DNA from: Bilabrum cf. latius
Lineage: Eukaryota
Direction of reading: 5' to 3'
NCBI GenBank assembly: GCA_965178125.1
Contig: OZ237769.1
Coordinates: 248,001-312,000 of the forward strand
DNA length: 64,000 nt
Below, in pieces: positions 2,225 through 63,083 of the stretch; position 1 is the first letter of the stretch; the number at the start of each line of letters is the position of its first letter. The notes below the pieces were generated by a model that saw only the letters and a program-made list of their open reading frames with translations, was not told where the DNA came from and made no database searches. A program made the position numbers and the translations under genes.

Positions 2225-2284
<60 letters not shown>

Positions 2285-4301
2285 ATTGCTGCTGCTGCTG
2301 CTATTGCTGCTGCTGCTGCTATTGCTGCTGCTGTTCCTGTGGCATCGGGGCACTCTCAGGCCCAAACTGTTCCTCGTCCGCTTGACCTGCCACAAGCACG
2401 CCATAAGAGTCAGCAGATCCGACCGAACCAGACTCCCAACAACGTCCCCTCAGCGAGCCAGGCAGCGACACACCATCTACATCCGTGCCAGACAAAGACC
2501 CGAGCTGGCTGCCGGCATCCTCACTCGTCACACTCCTACCACTTCTCATCCTGTGGTCATGCATCCGGAGCCATTGCCCAGTCAGCCCCGAGTCCATGCT
2601 CCCCGCCACTGACCCGCCATCACGCGCCTCCCCTTCCCGTCCAGCGCTTGCCATGGCCTCGAGCTGTCTGTGCACGTCAGTGGCATCGGCGTCGCACGAA
2701 TAGTCTATGCCAGTGCCAGCCAGGTGGCTCGTCAGCGGTGCAAGGCGTGCTGCTGGCTGCTGCCTCGGGCTGCGTCTGCTCCTCCACTGATCCTGATCCT
2801 GCACTTGCAACCGGTGTTGCCGGGACTACGTCGCACGGGGTGGGGCAAATCTGCGGCTAGACTCCACCGATCCTGAAGCGTGTGACGAATACAGACCGGG
2901 TCCATCACGACCGTCCATTGTATTCAGGTTCAGTGCCCCCTCCCCGTCCCTTGTTGCCCCCCCGATTACCACGCTCCCCACGGACCCCTCGCTGCTGGGC
3001 GTCCCTCCATCATCGCTATCATCTCTGACGTCGTGCTCGTCTCTGCCGCCGCGCTCAACGTCTTGTCCACCGCGCTCAACATGGTCGGCTTGTGCCACCA
3101 GAGGGGTCCAAGCGGACGGAGAACGCGAAAAGATGGAGGAGGACGGCTACTAGGAAGTGTTCGGGCGTCGGATGGACAGGGGGGGTGCAGTGCCCCACGC
3201 CCTATGGGCTGTTCCCCGTCTTGTTCCCTGAGCAGGAGCCTGGATCCCACTTGTAGGATATTGTGCAGCTGTTCCCTCACCTACCCTGCCTGATTCACCA
3301 AGCCACTGAAGCCTCTGCTCGAGCGGCGCCTCCTCGCCCTCGCCCTCGCCCTCGCCCTCGACCCCATGCGCAAACACCGCGTCTTCAACGCCCTGCTAGT
3401 GCTGGTGCTGCTGCTGGTGCTGCAGTCGGCTGGACGTATCCACGCCCACGGGACTTCTCCGGGGGTCCAGTGGGCTCCCACTCATGCTGAGCCTTCCCTC
3501 CCACTGCTCCCCCCTCGCGTACTAATGTCGGTTCTGCGGGCTAAACTCGGCCTGCACTGTGGCAGCATCAGCGGCATCGGGAGGTGCATCGGACCATCCA
3601 TTGCCAGCTCCAGCCACGCCGAGCACGCGCCCGTGACCAGCCACTGGGAGTGCGAATACCTAATCATCGTGTCCACCATGGCTATCTTGCAGACTGCGAC
3701 GGCCTGCAAAAGCCAAAGACGACGATGTAGATGAAGATGAGACAGTAATTGCCACACCGCGAGCCCAGGCTGCGGCCTGCTGTGCTGATGCTGATGCTGA
3801 TGCTGGTGCTGGTGCTGATGCGTGGCCTTTCGGATGCGATCCTGCCTGGACTTCTGCAGCTGCTGCCTCCAATGCTCTGGGTGACGGTCTCAAGATCTCG
3901 GGCATCTGGGATGGATCCCCGGTGAGGATGGCCTCGCCCAACCATTTGGTAAATTGGCTCTTGGATGATTTGATCCTCTCCTTGATCTAGGTAGCGAGTG
4001 GGTCAAACCATGGCTTCTTATTGATATGGCTCCTGTTGAGAGCTTTCTGCGTAGCTTCCAGGTCCTTCTTGGCCATTGTTTGAGCCTCGATCAACTCGGT
4101 CGATCCGGGCTAGAATCGTCGAGCCGCTGCGATCATTCTTAGAGCGATCGGCTGCACTTTCTAAACATAATTTGTTCCTTTAGAATTCGCACCTTCAATG
4201 GTCGAAAGCCACGTTTGCAGGTGACCTGGCCGCTAGGACTCGGGGACTCTTAGGCCTGTCGTGCCGCCGCCCTGACGACCCGGTCGCGGATCTGCTTCCA
4301 T
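1716..4301 (-). CDS. Tandem family member B, 861 aa, with polyQ and low-complexity tail (TAG read as sense)
   Basis: One frame from ATG 4301 to TGA 1716, interrupted only by 15 TAG (e.g. 4233, 4161, 3660, 2319, 2301, 2283). Joins ORF-track pieces 3660-3941, 3150-3377, 2826-3098, 2319-2810 and 1890-2216. Has the family motif FTKWLGEAILTGDPSQMPEILRP and a basic end RPRKQRRRDGGK. Confidence 0.8.
1940..2200. repeat. About 3 copies of an 87-bp coding repeat
   Basis: GATGAAGCAGCAC recurs at 87-bp spacing. Encodes GAASSNAIMHDGAGVGQGDDADRGWGQSA on the minus strand. Confidence 0.85.
2226..2333. repeat. (CTG)n/(CAG)n microsatellite encoding polyQ on the minus strand, with three CAA-TAG interruptions
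   Basis: Seen directly. The minus strand reads cag cag caa tag cag cag cag cag caa tag... Confidence 0.95.
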
Positions 4302-5581
4302 GATATATATATATCAAGTGTCACCCGCAATTATATGTCTGGACAGCGACAGTCTGCGCCATTGAGCCAATACGATAAAGGGCGTCGGTGGCAAAAATTG
4401 TTCAGCATCCCAGGCAAACTGAATCCTATCACAACCCGGGCAACTTGGGCCAAAAATGATTACATGATACTATACTTAGCTCACTCTATGGCGGTGCAGC
4501 GTTCTTGTTAAGAGCTTGTAGCCAGAGCGATATGACGCCGGTGCCCGAGTCCACCGAGTATCTCAAAGATGCACTTTTCATTGATCAGAAAATGACACTG
4601 CGTAGCACTAGCGTTGCGACGCCTGTAGGAGCCATTGGCCCCATTCAAATCGTCCAGTCACCCAACAAACTTTTACATTCCACTGGATCAGAGCATATCA
4701 CGAAAATGGCTTGACGCTAGGATCCAGAGAGAGGCACTGGCGGCGTAGACAGGAGTGCGAGAGACCCGGCCACGGCTGTGCACTGAATTAGTACAGCGGA
4801 AGGCGAGTCCAGCACTGCAAATCCACGCTATCCTCCCGCCGGGCTAGTCAGGGCACGAACTTCCCCTACACAACGATACACGGAGACGGTATGCTGTTGG
4901 GGAGGGCCTCCTACCACCCCCCTCACCCCCCTCCCGCATGGTCCCATTTTGCATGTTTCATTGGCACTGGACTGCAAGGTGGGGTATCCAAAAGGGATTA
5001 CATACGACACTAAGGCTGCTCGGGGCGCAAACTACGGCCATCTGTAGTAGTCGCTCCCGCACGTACCATGCCGCACAAGTCTACCAAGTCTGCTCGCGCA
5101 AACTGCGTGAAGTCACCAAAGTGGTCGCGAGATGAAACTTTGCTTGATCAGGTCTTTATTATTCAAAGAATTTGACAGGAAACCGGAAATCGAAGAAAGA
5201 AAGTCGGACTCGGAGCCTCGACAAGACTTTTCCCACCTCAAAAGCTGCGATTCACAACTACAACTTGCCACACAAACAGAAAGCCGTAGTTGCAGAGGCA
5301 GCTTTATCACCTGCTTGACAATCATCAAGACACTCTCAGGACAGAGATATCCACTTGACGAGCCAAGACCGTGTTTCCAAAACGCCAGTTGGCCGTGGAA
5401 TTTGCAAGGTTGGTTGTGTTCTCAGCGGTAGTTGCACCAATCCTTGCCTACCTAGATTACCCTGGGTAAGTGAATGCCCCAGTAGTTCTCGTAGTACCTG
5501 GACCACATATTCAATTATTAATTTCCTGTCTCGAAAAGCATGAAATCCGGACGTTGCAGGAAGGGGTACTGACTTGACAAC

Positions 5582-7564: not shown

Positions 7565-9259
7565 TCACTCGACCCGGGTGCGCTTGGCCATCCTATGCGA
7601 ACGGCCAAAGTGTTCCTCACCCGGCTGTGGCTGGAGCAAGTCGCCCGACTCTCCAGCGCCGAACGAAGGTTGGCACGCAGGGCTGTGACCGCCTGCTCGC
7701 TCCTGGTCCAGGTTAATCTCAGCGCGGTCTCGCTTCCTGCCTATCGGCAGACGCGCGCTTGTTCTACCAGCAGCACTGAAAGTCGTCACGATTAGGCTAG
7801 CTGCTCCCGCACCCGCATCGATACCAGCCACACCTGCACTCGTGCCTGTACCTGTGGTGAACTCCCTCGATTGGGTCTCGCTCTCCATCGAGGCCATAGA
7901 GACAGCGCGGTGGCGGGCCCGGGACACGGCTGCCTCTGCCAGACACTTCAGATTGGATGGCTGCCGCCCGCTCGCACGCAAGGCTCGCCAGGAGCCAACG
8001 ATCGGTTGCATGGCTTGCTGGGGTGCAGGAGGACCCATTGCAGCACCGATTAATCGCTGGCCATACTGACCAGATCCACGCGCCTGTTGAATGACACCGT
8101 CAGTGGTTTGTCTTACAATTGCAATCTCATCTCGACTGAGCTCGGCGGACCATTGTCCGGATGTATCTGGCCTGGATGGGTCAGAAGGGATCCGGACTGG
8201 CTGCATGTGGCACATGCCCCGCCGAAAGGCAGCTTGCACCATGCGCTCAACCGATCGGGCGGGGTGTCCAGCCTCAGAGTACGTGCCCATCAAGTGATGC
8301 ACGTGTCGCGGGTCGTTGGCTGCAGCCAGGCGACGCGCACTCCCAGGAGGGAATGTTGCAGGGAAGTGCTCCTCCCGTGATGACGATGGTTCGGGATCAT
8401 GCGACAGCACTGGATGTGTCCACGATGAGGATGATGACGATGTTTCGGGATCATGCGACTGCACTGGATGTGTCCAAGATGAGGATGATGACGATGGAAC
8501 GGGATCATGCGATAGCACTGGATGTGTCCATGCCGAGGATGACGAGGATGACGAGGATGACCACGCACATGAATCCGGCCGTGCGTTGCCCATGCTAGTG
8601 AAGATCGCATCGGTTTGGAGCACCGGGGCAGCGCCATGGTCCACCACCTTGCTGCTGGACGCGGATGCAACGCTGCCTAGTGGGCCACTACCACGTAGTG
8701 CACCAGCAGATGCAAGGCTGCTTAGCTGGCCAACCCCGATCGTGCCCTCGCGGTTCAAGGTTGCAGTACCACTTGAGGCACCATCAAGACCTCCGCGATG
8801 CGGCTCAGCAACATCTAGATCCAACTATTCTGTTTGATGGACGGCAGGCTGCTTCAAAATGGGTGGCATGAAGTCAGGATTGCCCTGCAGAATCGACTAT
8901 CCCAGCCAACGTGTAAACGTATTCTAGCGGATACCAGCTTTTTCGCTGAGTTTTTTGCGCAGTTCGCCATACCAGCAGACGTTCTTATACTTGCTCCGTA
9001 GCAGGGCTTTCTGGCTGCTGCGCAATCTCTTCTGCAGCTGTTGCTGGAGTGTCTCTCGAGCTTTTAGGTGGTCGAACTTGCCCGACTGGTAGGCCTGCGA
9101 GCTTATGCTCGCAATCTCTTGGATCCTTTCTACGTACTTCGCTCCCGCTGGACATGAAATTTGAGTTTGCGTCAGCCATGTTTGCAGCTTGGTCACTTGT
9201 GCTGGCTTGAGAAGCGTTGGTGTCCAGACTGCTGAATCTCTTTGGGCGCTCGTTTCCAT
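7565..9259 (-). CDS. Tandem family member C, 564 aa
   Basis: ORF 8924-9259 continues through TAG 8924, 8897 and 8825 (GIR*NTFTRWLG*SILQGNPDFMPPILKQP) into ORF 7565-8824, which ends in TGA. Contains a 57-bp repeat (x3) at about 8380-8555. Confidence 0.8.
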
Positions 9260-9913
9260 GTTCCTTTCTACGATAGAGTAAGAACGGTCACTCTTGCATT
9301 ATAAACCATACTATTTCGGTTAATACGAGCAACCATGAGTTTGGTACCGTTCTAGGTAACTCAATGCCACGTTCCAGTGGAAAATCAAGAGTGTAGTTGT
9401 CAGTACAAAGCACTACTGACAGGCAATTATAAGCATTTGTCGATCAATCAGAACCATACTCACAGTGTATCTCCAATTATTTCTGTTGGCTTTCTCAATG
9501 TAAACAAATTTCGCTCAATAGCAACCATCGAATTCCCCGAAGTCTCCTTGGACATTCGACTCCGAATGGCGTGGGCAAACACCTGTGCACAGGCAGGCAG
9601 GTATATGGCTGCGTCATGAGGCGTACCAACGCGACGCTGGACATCTGCCACTACTAGAGCTAGTAGGCAAGGACATTCACGCCCTTTGTTCGCTGTGATC
9701 ACCACTGTAGATAGGCTTACAGCGAGCAGCCAAGATATGAGCGCAACGAGCGCTGCCAGCTTGATTGCGATCCGCTGCACGTAACCTGTCCAACTTGACC
9801 AGCGCAAGACTACCGCCAACCAGAAGTCCGAATATGGGGTGCATCTGAGTCATATATATTCCAATTATCAAGCCAAAATTAGTTGTCTGAAATTTTTCGA
9901 AGCACTGCGACCA

Positions 9914-13128: not shown

Positions 13129-15567
13129 TCACGTCCTCCTGCTCTTCAAGCCCTTCTCTTGCTAACCCTCCTCCTCCCCACGCCCCATGTGCTCGCCGGT
13201 AGCTTTACCAGCACTCTTGGTAGTACCTGGACTTTGCGCACGGGCGCCAGATGGTGCTTGACTGTATCTGTTACTCGTCTCTGGTACTTCCACTCGTGCC
13301 GATTCCTCTGCCGTCTACACTTGACCCCTGCCACGCTTTGCTCCGATCACCGGTGATGCCCCTGCGCCTGTACCCTCATGCATCCCAGCACCCACTGGCT
13401 GGCCCTGCCCCGCACCTGTACCCCCGTGCATCCCAGCACCCACTGGCTGGCCCGGCCCCGCGCCTGTACCCCCATGCATCCCAGCACCCACTGGCTGGCC
13501 CGGCCCCGCGCCTGTACCGCCGTGCATCCCAGCACCGACTGGCTGGCCCTGCCCCGCCTCTGGAGCGGAACCCTGCAACGAGTGATTACCTGCCACAGCT
13601 CGGGCAGACAGCCCTGGGAGTCGACTATGGACGCCTATCCGCATTGAGCTAGATGTACCGGTGTTGGTTTTGCTGCTTGCTGCAAACCCGAAAGAAGCTG
13701 CACTGCTGGCAGCTTGTGTTTCGTTGTCTTTGCCTGAGAAGGCCTGCTGGCCTGACTAGAGCTGCAAAACGAGCGCATTTTGGTTTGAATCCGATGCGAT
13801 GCGGGCACCGTTCTACCGCTTGATACCTATGCCATCCATTCGAGCATGCCAGGTGTCAGTGGTAAGCCCGCTGTCCTAGCTAAACGCTGAATAGCGACTA
13901 CTCACCGATTTATTGTCATCGGCCCCTGCATCTAGGCCTACCCCTACCAATGCTTGCGAAGACGAAGTTTCCACTGACCCACCTCGACGAGCCAGGGCCT
14001 GCCCCGCCCCTTCCATACAGTTGTCTCTTTCTGCCAGGGTCGCAGGGTTCCCGATAGCATCATCGAGTCGCGGAGTAACCAATCCAGCCTCATCCATGCT
14101 AATATCTCCTTCTTGACTCATAGGGTTGCCATTGTCATCAAATCGCGGAGTCAGCACGACATCCAGATCTGGATCGGCTATACGAAGGCTGCTTTGGCTG
14201 CCCACTTCTGACAGAGCTTCGCCGCTTCGGTCGCATGGCAACAAACTACCGGTCTACGCCGCCACTGACTGGCTTGAACTGCTCATGCTGCTCATGCTGG
14301 CTCTGGCCCCAGACCCGCTTCTTTCAGTTGGAACGGATGGACCACCGAGGGCCTCCAGCATATCCCCGGGGATCCGACCCGGCTGGCCCTGAGGGTAGGC
14401 GGCAGGGGTGCCCCGCTGTTCACGACGGGCCTGTTGCCCTTCAGGACGGGAGGCTATGGGCGCCATGGCAGCCCGCGAGCCTCGCAGTTCCCTTGCTGCG
14501 ATAGGGTCCGTGATTCGCAGAACCCATTCTCTCTCGCACCTCAAGAGCTGAGCCGCCCATTCCACCGCTTCGAGCCCATAAACATCCTCAACTTCATCTT
14601 GGCTTGCGTCACTGCCTGTGCTGAGGCTGTCCAACTCGCTGCTTGCGTTGGCAGACCCTTTGCTCGCGCTAGAAGCGCTCGACGTGGAAGCCACAGTAGA
14701 GTGTCCCGATCTTGCTGTTGCAGCCATAGGGGCAATGCCGCGAGAGACTTGACGATGCCATGGAGCCATGCCCGCTCTATATCCCTATACCGTCCCGTGC
14801 GCCTTACCATTGGCCTGCTACTCCTATTTCGAGTGCTGCAAAGGTGTAGATATGCATGCAGCGGACGGAGACCGGAAGTGCGGCGGCTGGGGCACCTCAA
14901 CAACTGCCTCAACAGCGGCACCATGCTGTGCACAGCTGGATCCCAGGTCCAACCCGCGCCTGAAAGCGGCAGCCACCATCCGTTGGATTGAAGCGAGCGA
15001 TGGATGCGTGGTACCAGCTGGAGGGACTTGGGCACCCTGACGCAGAGGTCCCGAGTGCAGTGCCGTTGCCTCTACCCCTGCCCTCGGCCCTATTCCCGCC
15101 CCTGTGCCTGCCTCCATGGCTGCCTACATTTCAACAACCCTTGCTACCACTGCCCCTGGTGACGGTCTCAAGATCTCGGGCATCTGGGATGGATCCCCGG
15201 TGAGGATGGCCTCGCCCAACCATTTGGTGAAGCTGTTCTGTTTGTTCAGGCCTGGAACTTGCTGCGGCATTGTTTTCATAAGAATTTGATACCATTTAAT
15301 ACCGTTAGCTTCACTCCTTAGAACGGCTTTCTGAATTGTTTTTAGCTTGCTACTTATACTTGAGCCGACTTCCGATGAAAAAGCTGAACCCCTTCTCGAC
15401 TGAGCAATACTTTCGGCAGCGAGCAATCTCAATTTTTGCACATAGCTCCTTCCTCCTTTGGAATGCTGGTCAATGTGCACCAGCCATGCTTGAACCATCT
15501 GGTTGTGCTCCATTCGGGTACCACTTAGTGCTCGGCAAGATGGTCCTTGCTGCTTTGGTTGGCTCAT
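13129..15567 (-). CDS. Tandem family member F, 812 aa
   Basis: One frame with 10 TAG (15124, 14824, 14818, 14785, 14254, 13876, 13813, 13756, 13315, 13162) and no TAA/TGA until TGA 13129. Has the family domain at the N-terminus and a C-terminus homologous to members D and E. Confidence 0.8.
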
Positions 15568-16072
15568 GCCAAACGCAAAGCTGAGGTATTATTCAAATAA
15601 AGTGGGTGTTTGGGTCTTATTTGCCGAATGATTTTGTCTGCAATGCAAAGAAGACTTGCACGATACTAGCATATTGTTAATAATATACACATATTTGGCC
15701 ATCACCCCCATCCGTGCGTTCCAAACCAAATTAAAGCAACAGCCTCCTACACAAGTACTGCATAAACGTCAAACCGCCTCTATCGAAACTCCTCACACTC
15801 TGCGATACACTATTTCTAAAGTGTGGATGGAGTTTGTTGCCCAAACACCCTTGCCGGCATAACCGGAACTGTTTGCAACTTTGGCCAGCGAACTGTAGCC
15901 AGCCCACACAGGCCGCTGCTTTTCTCGCTGGGCTAGGCTGCACCTTCGTTTGATCCAGCACGGATCTCAGTTTTGCACACACAGCCACATATGCTCCGCT
16001 CGAAAGCCCCTTACCCCTGGAGTCGAGACCATCAACAGGCGCCCCGCAGGCTCTCCCCTTACCCCTTCACGT

Positions 16073-21081: not shown

Positions 21082-21554
21082 GCGGTGTGCTGCCATTCCT
21101 GTGGCGTGTCGGCGGCACGCGGGGGGCATTCAGTGCCGCGGCGTGACGCGCATACAAGTCGGAGACTCGTGTCAGCAGAGGGCTCCCATGGTATTGCACT
21201 GCATTGGATTTGCGTGATTGCAGACCAAAAGGCCCTTTGGTGGTTCGAGAGTCGGGCCCATGCCCGGTGGATTCCAGGCTGCATGCACTATCTACTCTCG
21301 CAATATGATGTGTCAAGTTTGTCTACGAGTCGCTTGGCTTGCTTGCGCGCATCAAGCAGCCCGCTTGCTATCGCACTCGTCACACAAGTTACCGAGCGGT
21401 TGAGCCAACGAAAAAGCGCGCTCACCTCGTGCATTCATCCCGAACACACACGATTCTCACGACTGGTTTATGATCGTCGCAGTGTGCAGAATCTATTTGA
21501 TTTACCTGTCGTATTAATTGCAAGCATCAGCCCTAGTGCAGCCCAGGGCCAGGT

Positions 21555-27278: not shown

Positions 27279-27328
<50 letters not shown>

Positions 27329-29204: not shown

Positions 29205-29597
29205 CATCTTGGCAGACTTACAGCACGCCATGCAGGTTGTGGCATTCGAATTGGGAGGGTCGGTGCGCTAGCTTGATTGAAAGATGGGAGCGGGACGTTC
29301 ATCACGATCCTTGGATCAGCACCAGCGCGTCGTTCATTCCCTGCTGCCGACACATTATCGGTTGCCGGCTTGCACGTGAGGAGCGAATTCTAGCAATACC
29401 CCCATACTCCATTTCCACGCTTCTCTGTCAAGGTCCCGCGATTGGATGTAGCAACAAAGACAAGGATCGCTGCTGCTGCTCGTCATCGCCAATGCGCCAC
29501 GCCCAGTTGTGCAATCCTCGCTTGTTTTGCTGTTCAGTCGCGGTCATGCATACTAAACATATTCATTTTTCAGTTGCGCAGTTCAACGTGATTCAGC

Positions 29598-36039: not shown

Positions 36040-36190
36040 CGTGTCGCCAGGCCAGCGAAATGGTTAGATTCTATATTCTTTGGTGCGCGATTCCGGTCTT
36101 CGGCTTCAGGCCAATTAATCCAATGTAAAACGTCAACAGCCCATGCCGACCGGGTGTCTTACAATGTTGGGGTTAAACAATTAAAGGAGT

Positions 36191-47525: not shown

Positions 47526-48887
47526 GATTGATCCAAGCATGCGTATATATAATGTGAATGTGCATTACTAAATATGAGTTTGTTGGTTGGTACCTTGTAA
47601 ACAATCCCCGTTTCACAGCAAAGTGTGACATGTCTCCCCAGTGATGAGTCACGGTGCAGTGGTGACTAACTCGTGATGAACAGTCTGATGTTATGAGAGC
47701 ACCCGTAGAACAGGGATTGGGGTCGCAAACAGGGCGCCTCAAGGTTGGTGGAAGGGGTGTATTCAGCACTCCGGGTGCCGCGCCTTTCAGAGCGCCAGCG
47801 CACTGCAACTGTCACCGGTCCATCTCATCGCAGCACGAGCTGAAGCATGTTTGCCCGATGTACTACAACGATAGTCAGTTTTGGTGATCGAGTCATAGAA
47901 TTAGCAGAGAAATATCCGCGAGGCAGCCCCAATGATGGCCGTCAAAAGGCAGGGCGTCGAAGGTATCTAAATCTGCGGCCCACTGGAGCTTCGGCGGCGC
48001 GATTCGCCGAAGTAATTACAGAAATTATAGAAAGAGGCAGCAAGCGTTTGCGTTGCTTAGATCTTCGGAACGACGTAGCAAAAGTAGAGTCCGTTCTCGC
48101 AGCCCTGCCAAATACGAACGTCCGCGCTTTATCCTGCACATGTGAAGAAACTGATGCTGCTGTCCCAGGACTTATTGCATGTTTGATTCCCATGTTGGGT
48201 GATTCAGGCGTACTGGCCCGGGTACAGCACTTGGCACTGCATGAATGCGGGCTCACAGCAGACTCTGCTCTCGAACTTGTCGAAGCAATCGGTTCCGGGC
48301 GGCTCAAAAGCCTCACTTCGATTGATCTTACTTGCAACGAAAGTATTGGTGGCTCAGCAAAGCCTGAAGCAGGTGCATAGCTCGGTCGCTCGGCATTCGC
48401 CGCTGGGCTTGCAAGCGTTCTCGGAAGCGGGGGGCCAAGCTGCCAGCTGCAAGAGCTTCGCCTAGCGCAATGCAAGCTGCCAGTAATCGATTGTACCACA
48501 ATTTTGCGCTCTTTACGCGGCAACGATACCCTAGAAGTCCTCGACTTGAGTGAGAACCACATGTCCGACGCATTGAACACGCCAGACTACGAACCAATCT
48601 TGGACGCACTCGAGCACGGGCTACAGGATAACTGCTCGCTGCAGGTGCTCGGGATCGGTGGCGAAGCAACGGAGGTACACACAGTAGAGAAGGTCCTTGG
48701 AATCGTGTGCCGTGGTCTACGATGGAACCAGGCGAGGAGTACGACAGCTTCACTTCGGTGCTGGCTGTGACACAGGCAGCAGCCCACCCATTCATGTGGG
48801 TAGGTGGTGCTTGCTCATTTGAAGAAGGAGGGACGCTTGGGTGCACGGTGTGCGATCCAATCAGTGGGGCGTGGTGCGACGGCCAGT
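46871..48887. repeat. Copy A of a 2-kb direct segmental duplication
   Basis: Near-identical to 55709-57835. Spans the kinase 3' end, the intergenic region and the LRR gene 5' half. Confidence 0.95.
47847..48887 (+). pseudogene. Truncated copy of the RI-like LRR gene at 56767
   Basis: Same N-terminal LRR region. An indel near 48711 changes the frame (TGA 48768), and homology stops at 48887. Confidence 0.65.
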
Positions 48888-49353: not shown

Positions 49354-52300
49354 TCACACCTGCTCTGCCGGCGCCTTGTCTGGGATAGAGCTCCTTTTCA
49401 TGGCACTTTCCCCCGAACTCCTGGCTTTTCCACTGCCACCATCTGCTCTCGTGTTTGCATCATCATGGGAATCGCTGTCTGTGCGCCTCAGCCTTGCCAT
49501 TGCTAGGCACGCTACCGCTCCCAGCACCGCTGCAGAACCCACGATGACTATGGCAAGGGCTCCTGCATCCAGCCCATCGTCATTGCTATTCCTATCTTCC
49601 TCGAAATCAGTAGTTTCTGCAACATGGGAGTTGCTTGGACTAACTCTGGCAGCAGCATTAGTAGCGGGGCTAACGGTGGCTGTAGTTGAGGTGCTGGGGC
49701 TGGCTGTGGTGCTGGGGCTGGCTGTGGTGCTGGGGCTGGCCGTGGTGCTGGGGCTGGCCGTGGCGCTGGGGCTGGGGCTGGCCGTGGTGCTGGGGCTGGG
49801 GCTGGCCGTGGTGCTGGGGCTGGGGCTGGCCGTGGTGCTGGGACTTGACGATGCACTTGGCGATGGTGATGGTGATGGCGGGGGTTGCAGATTTATAATC
49901 CAAGCTGCCCCTGCACTATCGGCTCCGTCAGAATCTTGCGATGCCCCCACAACTATCTCTGGCGAACCCTGACCGTCGAGGTCGCCAAGTGACGCCACGG
50001 AGGATCCAAACCAATCGAGCCTACCAAGACTCCCAGTAAAGCCGCCCTGGGTACTAGAGATCTTCTGGTGGGACTTCACAGTGCCGTTCTGATGCATGGA
50101 GAGAATCCAAACGGCTCCTGTATTAAAATTACCATCATCATCTGTAATTGCCCCCACAGCCATCTCTGGGGTACCGTCTCCATCCAGGTCTCCCACTAAC
50201 GCCACAGATGACCCAAAGCCGTCATCATCTTCGAGAGTCCCAGCAAAGCCACCCTGGGTACTAGAGATCTTCTGGTGCGACTTCACAGTGCCGTTCCGAT
50301 GCATAAATAGGATCCAAACGGCGCCTCTGCCTGACCCATCGTCGCCATCCAAAATTGATCCGACGGCCAAGTCCTGGATGCTGTCACCATCAAGGTCGCC
50401 CAACGACGCCACGGAGGATCCGAACCAAGCAGACCTAGAAAGCACCCCGGTGAAGCCGCCCTCGTTGGAAGATATCTTCTGTTGCGACTTCACAGTGCCG
50501 TTCCGATGCATGGAGAGAATCCAAACGGCCCCGAAGTCGAAGAAACCATAGCGCCGTGCCCCCACAGCTATCTCTAGGGTACCGTCTCTATCCAGGTCTC
50601 CCACTGACGCCAGAGATGACCCAAAGTTGTCATCCTCACCAAGAGTCTCGGCAAAGCCACCCTGGGTACTAGAGATCTTCTGGTGCGACTTCACAGTGCC
50701 GTTCCGATGCAAAAATAGGATCCAAATGGCGCCTGCATTAGAATTACCATCATTATCCCAAAATGATCCGACGGCCAAGTCCTGGATGCTGTCACCATCA
50801 AGGTCGCCCAACGACGCCACGGAGGATCCAAACTGGTCAAGGCGGGCCAGAGTCCCGGAAAAGCCGCCCTAGGTACTAGAGATCTTCTGTTGCGACTTCA
50901 CAGTGCCGTTCCGATGCATGAATAGAATCCAAATGGCACCTGCAAATTCGCTGCCGTCGCTATCCCCCTGTGCACCCACAGCCATGTCCGGTATGCCATC
51001 CCCATCCAGGTCGCCCAACAATGCTACAGAGGACCCGAACTTGTTGCTAACGCTTAGAGTCGCCTTGAAGTTACCATCGGTGGCAGATATCTTCTAAAGC
51101 TACCCGACAACGTCATAATAATCCTACAGCCGCCTGACAACTTTCGATGCCTTCTGTACCGCACTTGGTCTCACAGGCTCAGCTAAGCCGTCCGTGACAT
51201 GCTACACATGGCTCACAGGGTGACGATACAATACACCCCCTTCTTTGCAGCGCAGCTAATTCGACCCACATGCATGCTACCACTTGTCAAAGCCCTCAAG
51301 CGCGACCACCCTTGCGTCAGTGTCGTGCACGCAGAAGGCCTCCCCCGATCTGACGGCATCCCAGACGCCCACGCAGTCGTGCTTGGCACTGTCATCAGCT
51401 GTATGGTATGAAGCTTTGATTCCAACCAAATAAGCCTCATCCAATCGTTCTTTTTCCCCCAAATGAGCAGTTATCACAGCTACCGGATCCTGTCCAACGT
51501 TTCTGCTGGGCAGAAGACCCATGGGTCCAGTGCTAGCGTCGCTAAACCGGATGTACCCAGGCAGGTCCTACGCCGTGTCAAACACAAAAGCACCTTCATC
51601 TCCCACGCAGGTCCTTTCAACAGACCTGTCCAGCGGGAGGGAGGCGTGGCTCTGGATTGTAGCCCTGGTGATTGCATTGGCGCAGACGGCTCTGGCTCCC
51701 TCCGAAGTGCCCATCTGGTCGCATACCCAGCCGCCCCCGCAGTGCTGCATGGATGAAATGCCAGCCATGTAGAAGAGTCCCGTCGGTGTACCAGCGACGG
51801 AACTACCTGCTAGAACAAGCTTGGTGACTGCGGGCGGAGTCTATGCAGAGGATGCGTCCAGGCAGACAGGCTCCATCCCTCCCTTGGACCCACCCATCTT
51901 GCCGTAAAAGCATCCCGTGTTGCGATCCACCCGCACCAACCCATGCCCATCAGTAGCGGCATGTTCTGCAACAGAGACGCGAAGGTTGATATCACGACGG
52001 GCATCGTGGCAAGCCACCATGGAACCCAAGTCGGCGTCGTCGGCGAGGGAGCGAAATAACCCCACAAGGCACACCACGTCCTCGCTCAGCCACTCAAGGG
52101 ATGACTGCACATACTGTAGCCGCGCCATCCCGGCAGATGTGCCCATGGCACCGGTGGGGATCAAGGCCGCATGCTGATCCGAAGAGGTGTTGTACACAAA
52201 CCAGGCGTCCGCGAGGCCGCTGCCTGATGCAAGCACGTACGACACCATATCTCTATATGAAGATGGTACCGGAAAGCCATAATGCCACTGGAAATCGCCG

Positions 52301-52632
52301 TCCAGATGCCCAAAGGAGCCCGCATCGAGCTGTTGTGCGGCCATATGGCTGATGGCTGCACGACACGAGGCCTAATCGCAGTCCAGAGGGAGCCTCATCG
52401 GCCGAATCTCGGAATTCGACGACATATTCGCAAGCATAAATGTACTTTGTCCAACCTGAGCGGCATAGTGGACCTGCAACTTATTGGTGGGGCTGTTGGC
52501 GACTGGAGATTCGCACGTGATAGACATGGCGCGTGCGCAGATGGAATCTAGATCCATCATGTTTGTGGGGTGCGCGCGAGCCCCTGAGCTCGCAGTGAGA
52601 GCACATATTGCAAACAATACGACTAGTACCAT
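49354..52632 (-). CDS. Type I membrane protein with FG-GAP (integrin-alpha-like) repeats, 1092 aa
   Basis: Signal peptide MVLVVLFAICALTASSGARA. About six repeats of QKISSTQGGF...FGSSVASLGDLDGD...AVG...GAVWIL, then an SPS/T stalk, a TM segment and a short tail. One frame with 10 TAG (52372, 51841, 51568, 51277, 51256, 51202, 51124, 51100, 51094, 50869); ends in TGA. Confidence 0.85.
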
Positions 52633-55105
52633 TCGACTGCGAGATAAGGATGGATGGAAGCGGTGAAAGGGCCACTCATTCACTTTCTTCCCCTTGGCGC
52701 AGCAGATGCTGTCAGTTTGCGCCTAATTCAATGCGCATATGGCCAGTGCGTCGCACCAGGCAACATCATCAATATTATATATAAGTGTGATACTATGTGC
52801 ACACGATGCTTACATTGCTCTTAGTCTCGAGCTTCACACGCCAATTAATTGGACCCCCGGTGGGGCACACCAGGAAATATGAATTAATGCAAACAAAACA
52901 AACGCAACAAACAAAGAAGGCCGGGCGCCACGGTGCCACGTGCAAGGACAAGCGTGTCAGCGGAGGCCTTCCAGGCCGCAGGCACTTCCGGGTGCTCAAC
53001 GTGCTCGAGCAGGTGGTCCGCGAGGCCACGGGCAGACGCCCTATCCGGGAGCCAGAGGCACTTGGGTAATAATTTCTGAAATATGTCTATGCCAGGCGTA
53101 CAGAAGTGTTTTTTGGATTGTTTAGGATACCCAAGCTATCATATTATACTATTTACACATGTATGTAACACCTAAAGGTGATAAAGAGTTCATTATGCGC
53201 CGATCAGTGACTTTGTATGCTAGCAGCTGCTGCGCCACCAGGCACCCTTTCCATGATTTCGAAGCTATATTGCGTCTGAATGACCTCATATTTGATCAAT
53301 ATTGTCATATATATATACACTAGTATTGTAGCAAGTATGAACCAATTTGAGTGCAGTGAAAGTATGGACGTGTGTTCAATGTGCTGTTGGCGAACACATG
53401 CTGCATATATGAAGCTTGGGCCAAATCTGTTCGCAATAATAATAGTTCAGCACCTGGTACATACTAATAGATTAATATATTAGAATAAATGGGCAGCAGA
53501 TAGTGCTTTCATGAAAATATAAGGAAGTTTTGACTCTAGGAACAGAGTCCCCAAGTTGGTGTCTGACGCTTTCCAGACTATGTGGTTCAGTCTACAATTC
53601 CATGCTGAATCTGCAATCACTTCTAGTTATACCTCATTCTAGCGCACTAAAGTGCACGTAACTATACCGGGGAGCTCGACTCACCGGCACTCACAAATAA
53701 TAGCAAATAAGCATACAATAGTACCAAGTGAGAGCTTCCTAGCGAGACAATTGGACCAGATCAGCTGATCTAATCCGATTATCTTCTTGCCTGCCACGCT
53801 GACAGACCCCGAAGGGCAGTCAGCATGGCCGTTGCGGGCCTGCAAAGGGGGGCCATCAAACAAGACTACCCCCTGGGATGATGGGTGGAGGTGGGAAACC
53901 ACCACCACCTTGTGTAGTAAACAAGTGCAACCTAGAATGCGTGACCCCACAGATCTTGTCGTGTAGTAAGTGTGACGAGCACGCCCACACATCTTGGCGT
54001 GTTTGGCACAAACTCCTATTTTACGCGAGATTTAATGAGTATTATTTGGGAAGTCTTTGCTTGAAGTATTTATATATATCGTAATCGTAGTATGGTGAGG
54101 AGTAAACCTCGAAGTAGGCTTCATGCACTGTACTAGGGCTGTGTACCGTACGTGTTGGATCATCTTTACTTTTGATACTTAGATGCGGGCCGATTTGTAT
54201 GAAACGTAAACTACGACTCTCCCAACTAAGCCACATATAGCATGTACATGTGTGATTGGCTCTATTTTATGCTTTGCGTCACTTTTGTGCACTGAGTTGA
54301 AGCCGGAGGTTGGATCGATTGGGCATCATAACTACGTGCACTTTGCATGATGCATGCAGACCAAACTGATTCGATTTTTGCGTTGTTTTGGTTTTTACTA
54401 TTATAGGCCTCATCATATTTGGAGTTTTACCGCTCCATAATCATACATTACTGAGGTCGTTGCCAGTGGCCAGATTCACTGGCTGGTACACATGAGACAG
54501 AGTCGCCCGACTTGGGCATCCATGAGAAAGCTAGAGACTGAAAACGCACTCTTGGTAAAATTAGAACTTCATTGAACCATTGGTATGAGTGAATCTACTG
54601 TTGATGCATTATTGAAGGAGCATAAACGGTAGTTGTTCGTGTCGCTGGCTGACCTAGCACCTCGTGTCACTGAACCAGGTCCCAGGCCATTATTCAGGGT
54701 GGTAGATAACTCCGACCTAGCCGGTTGGATAGAATACCAATCTATGGCATGATTTCAGGTACAGGAAATTGCAGAACAGCAAACGACTTCGGCACAGGAT
54801 ACATGCTTCGCGCACCTCTACCGACAAAAGAATTCAAGACGATCTGTCAGTCCTGAGCTCTTCCACCCCGAATGGAGGCGATTGACTGGAGAAATGCCAA
54901 CCTCCACTCTTCGTGGCCTGCCTCTTCCGTTAATCAGATTACGATGTCTAACGCTACAATTCCTCTTCCCACCTACGGACAAGGTGTTGCGGCGTTCTCC
55001 TTCTTCGCAGAGCCATCCTCATCGCACAGACGCTTATCATCTCATTTGACGTCAACAACGAATCAGACTCTGTCTCCTTAATACCAGGATTCTGACGGTG
55101 CTGCC

Positions 55106-55708: not shown

Positions 55709-57835
55709 TGCCAGGCGCAAGACAGTCGTGTTGCTCATCACTTCCAATTATACGGCATTCTAGCGCCTGCAGGTGCACGCAACATGGATCCGAGCCGGGC
55801 ACGCCGGACCACTCGTACCACCCTTACCTGTCCCCGCGCCCTTTGCTCCCAGTTCCGAATCCTCGGAAGTGGCCAGGGGTCCGCTGTCGGCTGCCCTCGG
55901 TCGGCTGATCTGTCGGCTGTGTGATCCTGACCCCGAAAGGCGCATGCGGCTGCACGAGGCGTGGGTGTGTGACGAGTGGGTGCTGTGGGCCAGGAAGCTT
56001 GAGATGGCGGCCAGCGGACGACTATGGGAGGGCTACACAGGTGTGACGAGCGAAGATGCCTTGGAGGACGGTAGCGGCTTTGGGGTGGTGAGGGTGTGCA
56101 GCGCACCCGGCGGCATCGGTGGCGGCGGTGTGACGAGTGAGATCGGTGGCTGGTCTATGCAGCGCTCTCTGTCCTCCTTCAGGTCGGTGCCTCCCTTGGC
56201 GGGCGGTACCCTCCGGCTGCGAGCGAGCACGATGGCCGGAGCAAGTGCTCGGGCGGTGGGACGGAGCTCCTCGAGCCAGTCCTCGGTAGTAGAGAGGAAT
56301 GGGTCGATCAGCCCATAGAGGTGCAAGGGTGGCGCGTGCTCATCTTCTCCCACCGGCGGCGCTTTCGGAGCAAGTGCTCCGCGTTCGCCTGGTTTCATCG
56401 CGAGGAGCAAGAGCGGGGGCGATGGGCTGGAGGGGACGGCCAAGGTTGCCCGGCTGCTCTGAGATTGATCCAAGCATGCGTATATAATGTGAATGTGCAT
56501 TACTAAATATGAGTTTGTTGGTTGGTACCTTGTAAACAATTCCCGTTTCACAGCAAAGTGTGACATGTCTCCCCAGTTGATGAGTGCAGTGGTGACTAAC
56601 TCGTGAACAGTCTGATGTAGTGAGAGCACCCGTAGAACAGGAATTGGGGTCGCAAACAGGGCGCCTCAAAGGGTGTGTGTATTCAGCACTCCGGGTGCCG
56701 CGCCTTTCAGAGCGCCAGCGCACTGCAACTGTCACCGGTCCATCTCATCGCAGCACGAGCTGAAGCATGTTTGCCCGAAGTACTACAACGATAGTCAGTT
56801 TTGGTGATCGAGTCATAGAATTAGCAGAGAAATATCCGCGAGGCAGCCCCAATGATGGCCGTCAAAAGGCAGGGCGTCGAAGGTATCTAAATCTGCGGTC
56901 CACTGGAGCTTCCGCGGCGCGATTCGCCGAAGTTGCAGAAATTATAGAAAGAGGCAGCAATCGTTTGCGTTGCTTAGATCTTCGGAACGACGTAGCAAAA
57001 GTAGAGTCCGTTCTCGCAGCCCTGCCAAATACGAACGTCCGCGCTTTATCCTGCACATGTGAAGAAACTGATGCTGCTGTCCCAGGACTTATATCATGTT
57101 TGATTCCCATGTTGGGTGAATCAGGCGTACTGGCCCGGGTATAGCACTTGGCACTGCATGAATGCGGGCTCACAGCAGACTCTGCTCTCGAACTTGTCGA
57201 AGCAATCGGTTCCGGGCGGCTCAAAAGCCTCACTTCGATTGATCTTACTTGCAACGAAAGCATTGGTGGCTCAGCAAAGCCTGAAGCAGGTGCATAGCTC
57301 GGTCGCTCGGCATTCGCTGCCGGGCTTGCAAGCGTTCTCGGAAGCGGGGGGCCAAGCTGCCGGCTGCAAGAGATTCGCCTAGCGCAATGCAAGCTGCCAG
57401 TAATCGATTGTACCACAATTTTGCGCGCTTTGCACGGCACTGATACCCTAAAAGTCCTCGACTTGAGTGAGAACCACATGTCCGACGCATTGAACACGCT
57501 TGACTACGAACCAATCTTGGACGCACTCGAGCACGGGCTACAGGGCAACTGCTCGCTGCAAGTGCTCGGGATCGGTGGCGAAGCAACGGAGGTACATAAA
57601 GTGGAGCAGGTCCTCGGTGTTGTGTGCCGGCTCTGCGTTTCGCTGCGCTGCGTCTGCTTGTGGTCTTAGATGGAACCAGGCGAGGAGTACGACAGCTTTA
57701 CTTCGGTGCTGGCTGTGACACAGGCAGCAGCCCACCCATTCATGTGGATGGGTGGTGCTTGCTCATTTGAAGAAGGAGGGACGCTTGGGTGCACGGTGTG
57801 CGATCCAATCAGTGGCGCGTGGTGCGACGGCCAGT
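55709..57835. repeat. Copy B of the 2-kb direct segmental duplication
   Basis: Matches 46871-48887, with a 99-nt insertion at 55733-55831. Confidence 0.95.
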
Positions 57836-58893
57836 TCATCCCGCAAAATGGGCACCGTGCCTCTGGCAGTGACAGTGGGGTCACAGAGCGGCGGGAGCTC
57901 AACGTGCATCTGCACAGGAGTCATATCGGATACGATATGGAGAAAATGTGGCGGCACCATGGGGTCTCTTCTGCGCCCGTCGGCAGTGTAGGAGTAGATG
58001 GAGAGCTCGACGCTCGGATCCTTCGGGCGAGAACGGCCCTCGGCAAGTGCGTGTGGCAGCTGCGGCTGGCTGCCCGCAAGCTGTTTGAAGAAGTAAATGC
58101 AGACAGGAGGAAGGCGGTGCAAGGGGCTCTCGATGCATGTGCGGGGTTTGTGGAGGAGGTTTTAATCTTTGTTGTGGAGGAGGTCGCAGTGCCATCATTA
58201 TCGGGAGGGGGTGCATCGCATTATGGTGCAGGCGTGGGTACAGCCGGTGCATCTGCTGCGGGAGTTGATGGGGGTGACAGGCTGCGGGAGGAGGTGCTCC
58301 GTTTGCTGTGCGTGCTGACAGACGTGCTGTGCGAGTGCAACGAGCCAGACGCTATCACGTTCCGTGTCGGTGTACCATACGATGACAACCATACGTATTG
58401 GACGCAAGAATGGTCCTGGAGCCAGTACGATGCAGCCTGCGTGTACGATCCACGCGTGGGAGACAGCTTCCCGTACGTGGGAGCGCGGCTGGTCGATTTG
58501 CTACAGGAGGCATGCATGGCTGCGGAGAGGGGTGGGGTAGAGGGGCACAAGAAACTACGGCGGAGGTGGGTGAGGCTGGTAACCATGCGGAGACAGGACA
58601 AAATAGATGCTATGGTTCGGTGGAGGAGGGCGGTGGAGGCCTGGAGGGACGCTAGGTGCGTGTTCCAGGCCGCGAGCGAGGGCAGGCCCATGGAGCTGGA
58701 GAAGCGGCTGGTGCTGGGCGCAAGAACAGGGGTGCTGGAGGCAAAGCAAGACGTTGAGGTGACAGAAAATGGTGTCCTAGTGACTAAAACAGTGACGGCA
58801 ATTGAGGCGGCCAGACTGGGAGGGCATGACGAGTGCGTGAGGGTGCTGCAATAGGTGCAGGATGCCGTGAAGCTGCACTCTATTACGTTATGA
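56767..58893 (+). CDS. RI-like leucine-rich-repeat protein with a C-terminal ankyrin-like motif, about 700 aa
   Basis: LRRs LRCLDLRN, HLALHECGL, LTSIDLTCN and LKVLDLSENHM; C-terminal TAIEAARLGGHDECVRVL. One frame via TAG 57142, 57295, 57667 (may instead be a splice acceptor) and 58852. TGA at 58891. Confidence 0.7.
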
Positions 58894-60635: not shown

Positions 60636-60815
60636 CGTGCTGGTATAAATAATAAGGAACCGGTTGATACTACTATTAACCGCAGGAGCTCGGCATGGTC
60701 GTACGCAGCTGTGGCAACACTCTTTGGTCCGTTGGTTGAAGTTTGCTACATTCATCTTCAGTAATGTCGACACCATAATCGAAAGTAAGAAACGAGTACC
60801 CATGCGCAACCACCA

Positions 60816-63083
60816 TTAGATAAGAAAATACTCCTCCCCTTCGAGGCTGCTCCTCACAGATGCCTTGCTCGTCCCTTCCCCACCACTGCCGACGCCGGCA
60901 GCCTCCGCCCCCGCGCCGGCCGCCAGAGCACCCCCCGGATCGGCACCCGCACCCGCGCTCGGCTTCTTTCCTTTCATCGGCGTGCTAGACTCATCCAGGG
61001 CCTTGTTCCCTGCTTTCAGCAGCGCGTCCAGCTCTCCCTCCCAGCCTAGCTCTCGAGCAAGTGCTCGGCACGACTCGTCGCAACTGCCCAGAACCACGGC
61101 GTCTCTCTCCTCGCTGAAATCGCCCACTTTGTCCAGGTTAAACAGGGCCCGGGAGGTCCCTGGGAGCACCATCTCCGGCAGGGAACACACGGGGGCCACC
61201 TTCAGAGACGTGCCCATCACAATGAACAGATCGCTGCCGCCCGACTCACGCCGCAGCTCCCGCAAGTCGAAGGGGCCGCCCGCAAGAGCGGCGCGCACGG
61301 CCGCTGGGTCGCTGCCGCCACTGCGCGGCGCCGGTGCCGCACCCTCCCCGTCCCTGCCGGTGAGGAGTCGCACCAGGTCGCACTGTTCCCCGCACAACTC
61401 GGAATCGTTTCTCACGTCGGCTAGGCATGCCCGCCAGGAGTACTCGTCGGCTGGGACGGTGCGAGCCCTGGCCGCAAGCTCTCTGATCCGCGGGTCACTC
61501 GTCACACCGGTCCGCACGGCCTCGGTCACGACGGGGAGGATCGCCTCCAGGAGCTTCCCCTGGGCTTCCTTGGACTTGTTCACGAACGTTCGTCGGGCCC
61601 GGACGAAGTCTCGCTGGATGCAGTCGTGGAATGAGTCTGGCAGTCCCTCGCCGAAGAAGACGATGTCCGGCTTGGGCGTCGATCCGCACTCCTTGCACCG
61701 AGGCAGCTTGTCCGTATCAAGGAACCTTCGCTCGAGTTCGTCCAAGTCGACCTCCCGGTTGCAACCGGTGCAGTGGGCCCCGCTCATGCCCCCGTGGCAC
61801 TGCATCAGCACGTCCCCTCTGCGAGGAATGCCGGCCTTGTGCTCCAAGCTGTCAATGTTCTGCGTGTAGATCCGCTTGATCAGGCCCTTGTCAAGCAAGA
61901 GCCTTTGGAAATAGTGGCACACAGTTGGCCGCGGACTTGCGCTGGAAAAGAGCATCGTTTTGGCACGCTCGTAGAACGGGCGGGGGCTTTTATGAGTGAA
62001 GAACCGGATGGAGAAAAGATCTTCCGGGGCCGTCATCCCCCCGGGCAGCCCCTCTTTCCTGAGCTGCTCGTACAGTCCACCTTTAGACCGGAAATCGGGA
62101 ATACCCGCCGACACGCTCACCCCCGCGCCCGTCAGCAGAGTCACGCTCTTTACGTCGCCTGCGCGCACCGCCTTTGCGATTCCGGGTAGATCCATCCCAT
62201 GGGTCTCCAGGCATCCCCCCGGCGACAGGTGCATCGCACTGCTGAGCTGCAGCATGGCGCCGTTGCAGTGTGCCACGGCAATGTCCCTGACCCTTGCAGC
62301 CAGCACATCAGCGGGGAGCGAAGCGGGGGCGGGGGCAGCAACGGAAGGAGACGGCGATCCTGACGCGGCGCCGGTTCCGCTTGCAGCCAGACCCTCGTCA
62401 GAGCCCACGGCACCATCGCACGATCCACTCGGATCTGCACCTGCACCTGCCAATGCACCAGGACCATCGCCTGCACCTGCACCAGTCTCTGCGGCAGCTG
62501 CACTGACAATCGCTTCTCCGCCGGCTGGTGCCAGCCCTTCTGAATCGGAGCTGGCGGGGATGATCCCGGCCTGCCGCGCGGCTTGGACGAGCACGTTGCG
62601 CGGGTGCATCTGGCTGTCCGCGTCGGTCGCGTCACCTGCCCCGCCCTCGCCCTCGCCACCAAATTTGGCCTCGCAAAGAGCGTTCACCGAGGGCTGCGTG
62701 TAGTCCGATTCGATATAACTGTCGCATTCGAAGCACCACACGGACAGATCAAGAGCGGACACGGCGATCTGCCCCGCGTGCCTGCCCTCGCCCACTGCCT
62801 CACTGCCGCCCGCCGCTGCTCCCGGATCGGCACCGTACTTTTCTTCGTTAGCCGCCCTCAGCTCATGTGCTCGACGCAGCATGTGGCTCTTAGCGTACCG
62901 CGAGCACAGTACCTAGTGCGTTGACAGGTTGAACCAAACCTCTCCTTCGTGCCCGCATTCTTCGCATGGTTTTGCAACCAGCTCCCGTGCTTTGTCTGGT
63001 GAAATATCCCGAATGCCAGCTTCTGCAACATGCGGACAGTCACGTTTGACTTCAACCGCAAAACCTACCCCGAGGTCGACCAT
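60816..63083 (-). CDS. Class I sirtuin (NAD-dependent deacetylase) with an N-terminal ZnF-UBP domain, 755 aa
   Basis: ZnF-UBP: CPHV..PCEECG..VWFNLSTH*VLCSRYAKSHM..LSVWCFECDSYI. Sirtuin: GAGVSVSAGIPDFRS, YTQNIDSLE, CHG, CxxC/CxxC, KPDIVFFGE and GTSLKVAP. TAG at 62913; ends in TAA. Confidence 0.92.

Follow-up and report, generated by a model that had tools for sequence, protein, structure and literature searches.

In-frame UAG codons, very probably read as glutamine, in a GC-rich 64-kb window of Bilabrum cf. latius nuclear DNA

Introduction

The stretch of contig OZ237769.1 from Bilabrum cf. latius analyzed here (64 kb; hereafter the window) contains long open reading frames (ORFs) that run through TAG triplets, which raises the question of whether UAG terminates translation in this genome and, if it does not, which amino acid it specifies. 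A first-pass annotation, made from the DNA letters alone, had proposed glutamine, with glutamate as the weaker alternative. By comparing codon counts, paralogs, internal repeats, homologs and the contigs of sequencing runs, we find that UAG is an in-frame sense codon inside genuine, expressed protein-coding genes, and the alignments indicate that it is very probably read as glutamine.

In-frame UAG in expressed genes

The 13 sites named as TAG in the first-pass annotation (2283, 2301, 2319, 22554, 16136, 3396, 50869, 51094, 57142, 4233, 8897, 13162 and 13315) are all TAG in the frame of a long ORF, and the one site named as CAG, 48225, is CAG, so that its coordinates were correct in 14 of 14 cases. 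The 20 ORFs that we took as coding comprise 14,420 codons, including 84 TAG, 471 CAG, 152 CAA, 477 GAG and 208 GAA. Counted with the glutamine codons, TAG would thus be fairly rare, at about 12% of them. TAA and TGA are absent from the interior of these 20 ORFs by definition of an ORF. Nevertheless, when TGA was used as the sole stop, TAA was confined to the margins of the 18 ORFs that reach 600 aa and never fell within their bodies, so the pattern is not created by the way in which the ORFs were built. Under the standard code no ORF exceeds 735 aa, whereas treating TAG as sense gives one of 2567 aa. Non-coding frames carry about 94 TAA, 157 TAG and 282 TGA per 21,333 codons; judged by the other frames, about 45 TAA and TGA codons together would be expected in the ORF at 21501-29201, which has 13 TAG and none of either. 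Frames with up to 15 TAG carry neither TAA nor TGA, and Pfam domains or homologs are present on both sides of TAGs. The genes on which transcript evidence bears, together with the largest ORF, are as follows.

21501..29201, plus strand: 2567-codon ORF for a low-complexity protein with a membrane-spanning middle; 13 TAG; ends in TGA
33883..36036, plus strand: FAP206 (cilia/flagella-associated protein 206), main exon after an intron at 33769-33882; Pfam FAP206, 7.4e-34; TAG at 34459
36185..37024, plus strand: RING-variant (MARCH-like) finger gene; Pfam RINGv; TAG at 36356, 36413 and 36671
38334..40085, minus strand: presenilin gene of at least three exons; Presenilin, 4.4e-83; no TAG in the two ORF pieces scanned; ends in TGA
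40936..41463, minus strand: ribosomal protein S23 gene; Ribosom_S12_S23, 1.5e-47; no TAG; ends in TGA
42825..44800, plus strand: DMAP1/SWC4-like gene with exons at 42825-44008 and from 44161; SANT_DAMP1_like, 3.2e-24; TAG at 44345
45320..47522, plus strand: protein kinase gene, main exon after an intron at 45231-45319; Pfam Pkinase; TAG at 45906, 46734 and 47379

Contigs from four coded sequencing runs were aligned to positions 31700-51699. In two of the runs, X5 and X8, contigs join across GT..AG boundaries at 33768/33883, 42731/42825, 44008/44161 and 45230/45320 and across CT..AC boundaries at 39506/39720 and 39984/40085; there is also a poly-T loose end at 40553, and depth, in single figures elsewhere, climbs to as much as 4486 on the S23 gene. 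Because of these splice joints, the poly-T end and the S23 depth, we treat X5 and X8 as behaving like RNA, although they are not recorded as RNA. The window has a GC content of 51-66%, and Pfam recognizes ordinary eukaryotic genes on both strands. It is nuclear DNA from a GC-rich eukaryote, whose genes are expressed and carry short GT..AG spliceosomal introns.

The spliced X5 and X8 contigs that cover five TAG codons (34459, 44345, 45906, 46734 and 47379) have no differing letter at any of them; they include contigs 45320-47589 and 45320-47563 over the kinase gene (from X5 and X8) and X8 contig 44161-44666 over the DMAP1-like exon, none of which differs from the window. The unspliced X5 contig 36136-37093 likewise matches the RINGv gene throughout, including its three TAG codons. 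Wholesale U-to-C editing at the TAG codons in the spliced contigs is thereby excluded. The sole T/C difference near a named site, at 48225, arises because the paralogous copy at 57142 maps there. TAG 45294 lies within the kinase intron, is non-coding, and was left out of the evidence.

The S23 gene is very highly expressed (depth 1882-4486 in X5), and its transcript (40553-41463, minus strand) has hundreds of times the depth of its neighbors in both RNA-like runs. As TAG is absent both from this gene and from the scanned presenilin pieces, it fits the behavior of a minor codon. A G>A variant at 41020 makes up about 15% of the depth in both of these runs.

Glutamine at the conserved UAG positions

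Which residue UAG specifies can be asked of four further genes, one of them partly duplicated, that have close relatives, internal repeats or recognizable homologs.

31771..33744, minus strand: pectin-acetylesterase-like gene; Pfam PAE; nine TAG (33703, 33484, 33271, 33208, 32653, 32233, 32080, 32074 and 32068)
47844..48767, plus strand: truncated, partial leucine-rich-repeat (LRR)-like duplicate; CAG at 48225, TAG at 48378
49357..52809, minus strand: FG-GAP repeat protein; Pfam FG-GAP, 9.5e-37; 11 TAG, including 51094 and 50869 inside repeats
56764..58890, plus strand: LRR-like gene, of which 47844-48767 is the duplicate; TAG at 57142, 57295, 57667 and 58852
60819..63557, minus strand: sirtuin (SIR2) with an N-terminal zf-UBP finger; SIR2, 7.9e-45; zf-UBP, 3e-10; TAG at 62913; ends in TAA

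Most weight rests on P0121 and P0131, two ORF fragments of one close relative, taken from a protein collection and derived from an assembly of a public run. P0131 (767 aa) is 83% identical to the protein of the 2567-codon ORF, whose TAGs include 22554 in a polyQ run, 22713 after a GQ repeat, 24933, 25926 and 25968; it covers the last three and has Q at all of them, in stretches that are otherwise identical to the window. P0121 (384 aa) is 76% identical to the esterase-like protein and has T at 33271, K at 33208 and Q at 32653. Together, the two fragments have Q at four of the six TAG sites, K at one, T at one and E at none. Since they were called under a code in which TAG is a stop, their glutamines must be canonical CAR codons. 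P0121 terminates exactly one residue before the window's TAG 32233, which suggests that the relative also has TAG at that position, and the relative, about 80% identical in protein, seems from these alignments to share the code. Public protein sets for this group are, to judge from where P0121 ends, probably fragmented by standard-code gene calling.

The FG-GAP repeat protein has a signal-peptide-like start, six 69-residue repeats, a stalk rich in Ser, Pro and Thr and a membrane anchor. Its TAG 51094 directly precedes the K-I-S motif of the first repeat, and the claim that this TAG takes the place of the Q in [HQ]QKIS holds, as all five sister repeats have CAG there. We ran a profile of the six repeats over 120 homologs, those listed of 3111 hits at E ≤1e-10, which yielded 1529 repeat units. 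Among these homologs, the 51094 column is filled in 1465 units, with Q in 978 (67%), followed by R (112), V (69), A (50), S (36), K (29), E (26, or 1.8%) and L (21). The second site pointed out in these repeats, KISST-TAG-GGF at 50869, is present as described; its sister repeats have CAG three times, GAG once and GAT once, and its column in 1460 units of the same 120 homologs has Q in 277 (19%), E in 267 (18%), A in 225 and T in 202. Both this site and its homolog column are uninformative.

The two LRR-like copies share 93.6% protein identity over 283 aa, with 255 identical codons, 11 synonymous differences and 16 non-synonymous ones. As had been proposed, CAG 48225 and TAG 57142 stand opposite each other in them; TAG 57295 is opposite TAG 48378. 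A search against the Protein Data Bank (PDB) placed the TAG of the LRR gene outside the aligned repeats. These copies belong to a segmental duplication of about 3 kb (45168-48800 and 55050-57700, 94-98% identical in protein) that holds the C-terminal half of the kinase and the start of the LRR-like gene; the kinase duplicate at 55050-56459 keeps a TAG (56316) opposite TAG.

The single TAG of the sirtuin gene, 62913, sits in the zf-UBP finger, with the sirtuin domain free of TAG in the PDB alignment. The match to HDAC6 that the first-pass annotation had put forward could be reproduced: five human-type HDAC6 ZnF-UBP chains have Q opposite this codon, and one HDAC6 chain, 5g0f, has K. The DMAP1-like exon had no real hit in the PDB search. 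Human DMAP1 and LRRC57, which we presume to carry E opposite TAG 44345 and 60588, respectively, were not used.

Summed over the 22 assessable columns, BLOSUM62 scores are 38.5 for Q, 19.1 for E, 17.8 for K, -0.1 for S and -7.2 for A; over the nine close comparisons they are 33.4 for Q, 14.6 for E and 10.6 for K. No assessed TAG column is dominated by Ser or Leu. In the column tabulation that the first-pass annotation had proposed as a check, Q is the highest-scoring residue; the columns of one fast-diverging family, discussed below, lean to E. Four segments were also scored against Pfam, each of the 20 amino acids being substituted for TAG in turn, a weak test that discriminates by only about 1-2 bits; Q was best for FG-GAP_2 (31.9, with E at 30.8 and K at 29.9) and for PAE (27.8, with K at 27.6 and E at 27.0).

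The surroundings of the codon were compared as well. TAG does occur inside polyQ runs in the contexts described for 2283/2301/2319, 22554, 16136 and 3396. It has Gln on both sides in 5 of 84 cases, a count in which three are copies of one 18-nt unit, and is thus flanked by Gln as frequently as CAG is (38 of 471); for GAG the figure is 3 of 477, and for AAG it is 0 of 292. TAG never stands between two Glu (0 of 84), and Glu neighbors number 0.06 per TAG site versus 0.157 per GAG site. A naive Bayes classification of the 84 TAGs by neighbor composition was dropped as too noisy, its rankings being unstable: Q came first with windows of ±2 and ±3 residues, L, Y and W led at ±1, and W and Y led at ±5, with E always below Q.

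Taken with the preference for Gln over Glu in the first-pass annotation, these results agree: Q is ahead in every comparison of conserved sequence, and UAG appears to occupy positions at which relatives conserve Gln.

Paralogs that lean to glutamate

A number of observations weigh against a glutamine reading, and the most substantial of them come from family A, a tandem cluster of six unannotated paralogs at 1-15.6 kb on the minus strand. Its members have no Pfam match; they share a 135-residue N-terminal domain with invariant W..L, F..WL and IL.G.P..MP.IL motifs, followed by long low-complexity tails. A profile scan of metagenome contigs for relatives gave 27 pattern hits, none confirmed. The members used are listed below.

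1719..4313, minus strand: family A paralog 1; 15 TAG, including 4233, 4161, 3396 and, in polyQ, 2319/2301/2283
7568..9298, minus strand: family A paralog 2; TAG at 8924, 8897 and 8825
10470-11279 and 11584-12813, minus strand: family A paralogs 3 and 4, with a mutual identity of about 80%; one shared TAG each
13132..15588, minus strand: family A paralog 5; 10 TAG, including 15124, 13315 and 13162

The first-pass annotation had itself warned that paralogs have Glu codons opposite 4233, 8897, 13162 and 13315, and the warning is borne out. TAG 4233 stands opposite GAA, GAA, GAG, GAG and GCA, that is, Glu codons in four of five paralogs; TAG 8897 is opposite GAG, GAG, AGG and GAT (E/R/D/E across the paralogs); and in paralogs 78-84% identical in DNA, TAG 13315 faces GAG twice, and TAG 13162 faces GAG once and GAT once. 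The proposed pairing of YV-TAG-KV at 4161 with YVQKL stands for one paralog, which has CAA, and fails for the other four, which have E, H, H and T. Elsewhere in the family, TAG 8924 is opposite K/Q/R/Q and TAG 15124 opposite Q/R/G/G. With an empirical substitution table drawn from the family's own alignments, and with one of two near-identical copies left out, the residue facing TAG is E in 8 of the 27 pairs and Q in 3, and a Glu model outscores a Gln model by 17 bits (-95.5 versus -112.4 bits).

Further points on this side come from across the window. In the esterase-like gene, the K and T of P0121 at 33208 and 33271 have conserved flanks, and five distant PAE homologs have neither Q nor E at any of four TAG columns, with Ala prevailing at two of them (A in all five at one; A, G, A, A and A at the other). 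Setting TAG to Q brought no advantage in the Pfam scoring of zf-UBP, RINGv and FG-GAP_3. An all-library HMMER search with the N-terminal half of the FG-GAP protein gave four weak hits that cover one TAG column with S, a gap, and S or L. TAG 34459 lies in a variable stretch relative to CFAP206 in the PDB, and both of these columns are uninformative. A short repeat has AAG twice where its third copy has TAG 6311, and the polyQ sites 2283, 2301 and 2319, being copies of one unit, count as a single event. Moreover, 22 to 24 of the 84 TAG codons were assessable in the comparisons; run contigs drop rare variants, so that a minor edited fraction would be invisible in them and partial editing is compatible with what they contain; and UAA as a stop rests on two gene ends in 64 kb.

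Nevertheless, we do not think that the Glu lean of family A overturns the glutamine reading, given how these proteins diverge. Family A identity is only 27-43%, and its best-aligned tail has 32 non-synonymous versus 9 synonymous differences; because divergence is mostly non-synonymous, replacement of E by Q is a likelier origin of a TAG/GAG difference here than silent substitution. Two residues away from each of the tail TAGs, 13315 and 13162, there are Q/E swaps between canonical codons (CAA/GAA and CAG/GAG). A single transversion takes GAG either to TAG or to CAG, so that where Glu has given way to Gln the two new codons should be about equally frequent, and the family has 8 pairs of TAG with E and 7 of Q with E, as expected for equal transversions.

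Alternative readings

A glutamate reading, by a tRNA-Glu(CUA), would make the TAG/GAG differences among paralogs synonymous, and the family A counts, its 17-bit fit, the Glu codons opposite 4233, 13315 and 13162 and the near parity of E and Q in the 50869 column are what it has to offer. We nevertheless consider it very unlikely. The close relative has E at none of six sites and Q at four, the 51094 column has E in 26 of 1465 units against CAG in all five of the protein's own sister repeats, the near-identical LRR duplicate has CAG rather than GAG, TAG has fewer Glu neighbors than GAG and never sits between two, and the tail of family A changes chiefly by replacement, with Q/E swaps beside both of its TAGs. 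Reading UAG as Glu would require coincidences, given the four ortholog Q sites, the Q-dominated column and the CAG in a near-identical duplicate. Only slightly less credible is an ambiguous UAG, either specifying several residues (Gln with Glu or Lys) or serving mostly as sense and in some contexts as a terminator, as might be suspected from the mixture of residues opposite TAG (Q, E, K, T and A) and from several ORFs with a TAG 10-30 codons before their TGA (58852, 13162 and 1806). The mixture is what the single-base neighbors CAG, GAG and AAG and ordinary divergence would leave, conserved contexts give Q only, and every C-terminus supported by homology ends in TGA or TAA.

That UAG specifies lysine or some other amino acid (Ser, Leu, Tyr, Trp or Ala), by analogy with known UAG reassignments, is highly improbable: K does occur at 33208 in the relative, at 6311 in the short repeat and in one HDAC6 chain, and Ala dominates the two distant PAE columns, but the BLOSUM62 sums for K, S and A all fall below that for Q, and K, S, A and L are each a small fraction of the 51094 column. 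To the proposal that the TAGs are real stops or artefacts, arising from pseudogenes, assembly errors or mRNA editing to CAG, we give almost no credence. No support for it was found, with the limit that contigs are blind to low-level editing. Against it, the same sequence occurs in runs labelled as coming from four different organisms or studies, spliced transcripts retain TAG, homology continues across TAGs, and frames rich in TAG are free of TAA and TGA. In the esterase-like gene, the five distant homologs align from before the first of the four assessed TAGs to the C-terminus, so translation must pass these codons. Glutamine remains the reading that we adopt.

UAA and UGA as stop codons

If UAG is read as Gln, the standing of UAA decides which known code the window resembles. 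The ends of 21 ORFs comprise 19 TGA and two TAA, the latter in the sirtuin gene and in one further gene.

29592..31388, plus strand: GH113 glycoside hydrolase with a C-terminal beta-sandwich-like tail; GH113, 2.9e-48; TAG at 30831 and 31026; ends in TAA

Beyond the TAA of the GH113 gene, GC drops from 0.62 to 0.51, and more TAA and TGA soon follow; beyond that of the sirtuin gene, GC drops from 0.63 to 0.46. Both downstream stretches look non-coding. In the bodies of the coding ORFs there are 0 TAA, against about 20 expected if TAA:TAG followed CAA:CAG (152:471). Because of this absence and the two natural-looking TAA ends, the code looks, as far as these genes can tell, like one in which UAG is Gln and both UAA and UGA are stops (NCBI table 15), and not like the commoner one in which both UAA and UAG (UAR) are Gln. 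In a GC-rich 64 kb, a rare sense TAA could escape notice. No gene in the window with a homology-supported C-terminus appears to end at TAG; all such genes end in TGA or TAA.

The sirtuin ORF and a downstream LRR gene lie in the same frame, with a single TAA (60816-60818) and about 59 low-GC codons between them. A fusion of the two into a 1474-aa protein, with that TAA as sense, was considered and rejected, as the composition argues for separate genes.

Other features of the window

One ORF has no family match:

5573-7372, plus strand: ORF without a family match, with a long tandem array at 6420-7250

The array (plus strand) consists of a 15-residue-type unit (…TSGRTTARDTSRRTA[VW/DC]D…), and all frames are open on both strands. 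Between the partial LRR duplicate and the FG-GAP gene, the DNA depth of run X1 rises over 48901-49140 (about 240 bp) to as much as 890 from a baseline of about 14, and many contigs break there and leave loose ends; this is probably a short, high-copy dispersed repeat. A 31-base piece of it had no match in the metagenome contigs or genome contigs scanned.

Among the matches listed, the FG-GAP repeats share 56-60% identity with proteins from Planctomycetes, Bacteroidetes, Myxococcota and other bacterial metagenome-assembled genomes, and GH113 is a mainly bacterial family. The FG-GAP and GH113 genes, both of which now have in-frame TAG, are candidates for gene transfer into this eukaryote. For the presenilin and DMAP1 exons, the nearest Atlas clusters carry mostly Streptophyta labels, which hints only weakly at an affinity with the green lineage.

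Proposed mechanism

Reading UAG as Gln would call for a tRNA-Gln with anticodon CUA, one base from the CUG isoacceptor, that pairs with UAG and not with UAA, for an eRF1 whose recognition of UAG is weakened, and for an mRNA surveillance system tolerant of UAG. These proposals rest on what PMC5304391 and PMC2984419 report for other lineages. Within the 64-kb window we found no tRNA gene (ARAGORN and an Rfam scan), no Rfam family and no eRF1 gene. TAG codons would have arisen mainly from CAG by a silent C-to-T change; in fast-evolving proteins they may also have come from GAG and AAG by single-base changes, as conservative E-to-Q and K-to-Q replacements. Such mutational sources (CAG, GAG and AAG) would account for Q, E and K being the residues found most often opposite TAG.

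Relation to known codes

Codes in which UAG alone is Gln are reported in PMC5304391 and PMC11687900: one fornicate, Iotanema spirale, and three ciliates, Protocruzia tuzeti, Hartmannula sinica and Trochilia petrani, have them. These sources for the table 15 type give 93.5-100% of C-terminal alignments in phyllopharyngeans as corresponding to UAA. Like the lineages so described, the window has UAG as sense opposite conserved Gln and keeps UAA as a terminator, and it would be expected to depend on a tRNA-Gln(CUA) that reads UAG and not UAA. Unlike them, it is GC-rich and has UGA as its dominant stop (19 of 21), and nothing in the window points to a ciliate or a fornicate.

The code with UAR as Gln (table 6) is attributed in PMC2984419, PMC8271138 and PMC6299283 to many ciliates, hexamitid diplomonads, oxymonads and Amoeboaphelidium protococcarum, and also to the ulvophycean green algae Dasycladales, Cladophorales, Trentepohliales and Blastophysa. 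As described there, the window resembles it in having a stop reassigned to Gln, UGA as the main terminator and in-frame TAG at Gln positions; it differs, provisionally, in having no in-frame TAA in its 14,420 coding codons and in having two genes that end in TAA. UAG is reported to be uncoupled from UAA in further codes too: it is Ser in the green alga Scotinosphaera (PMC8271138), Leu in the rhizarian exLh (PMC5304391) and Glu, together with UAA as Lys, in an oligohymenophorean ciliate (PMC10553269). The window shares this uncoupling, but unlike in those codes, Ser, Leu and Glu fall far below Gln at the columns that we examined.

In the literature searched, we found no report that could be linked to this organism, which does not prove that none exists; if this organism's code has already been published, the present work is a correct re-derivation only. 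The kind of code is known, and the lineage may be new for it. We raise, as a tentative idea that we think somewhat more likely wrong than right, that the window represents an independent origin of UAG-only Gln in a GC-rich, flagellated eukaryote with introns, outside the ciliates and fornicates and possibly in the green lineage, shared by at least two species about 80% identical in protein, and young, in that the sources of TAG (CAG, GAG and AAG) are still visible.

It is rare for a change in a nuclear code to uncouple UAG from UAA. If the reading proposed here is true, a GC-rich, UGA-terminating lineage would be another independent case, and a further case would help to test the capture of UAG by a tRNA-Gln(CUA), the change in eRF1 and the role of GC pressure. 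For this organism, annotation under the standard code truncates a large share of genes, and table 15 would be appropriate for gene calling.

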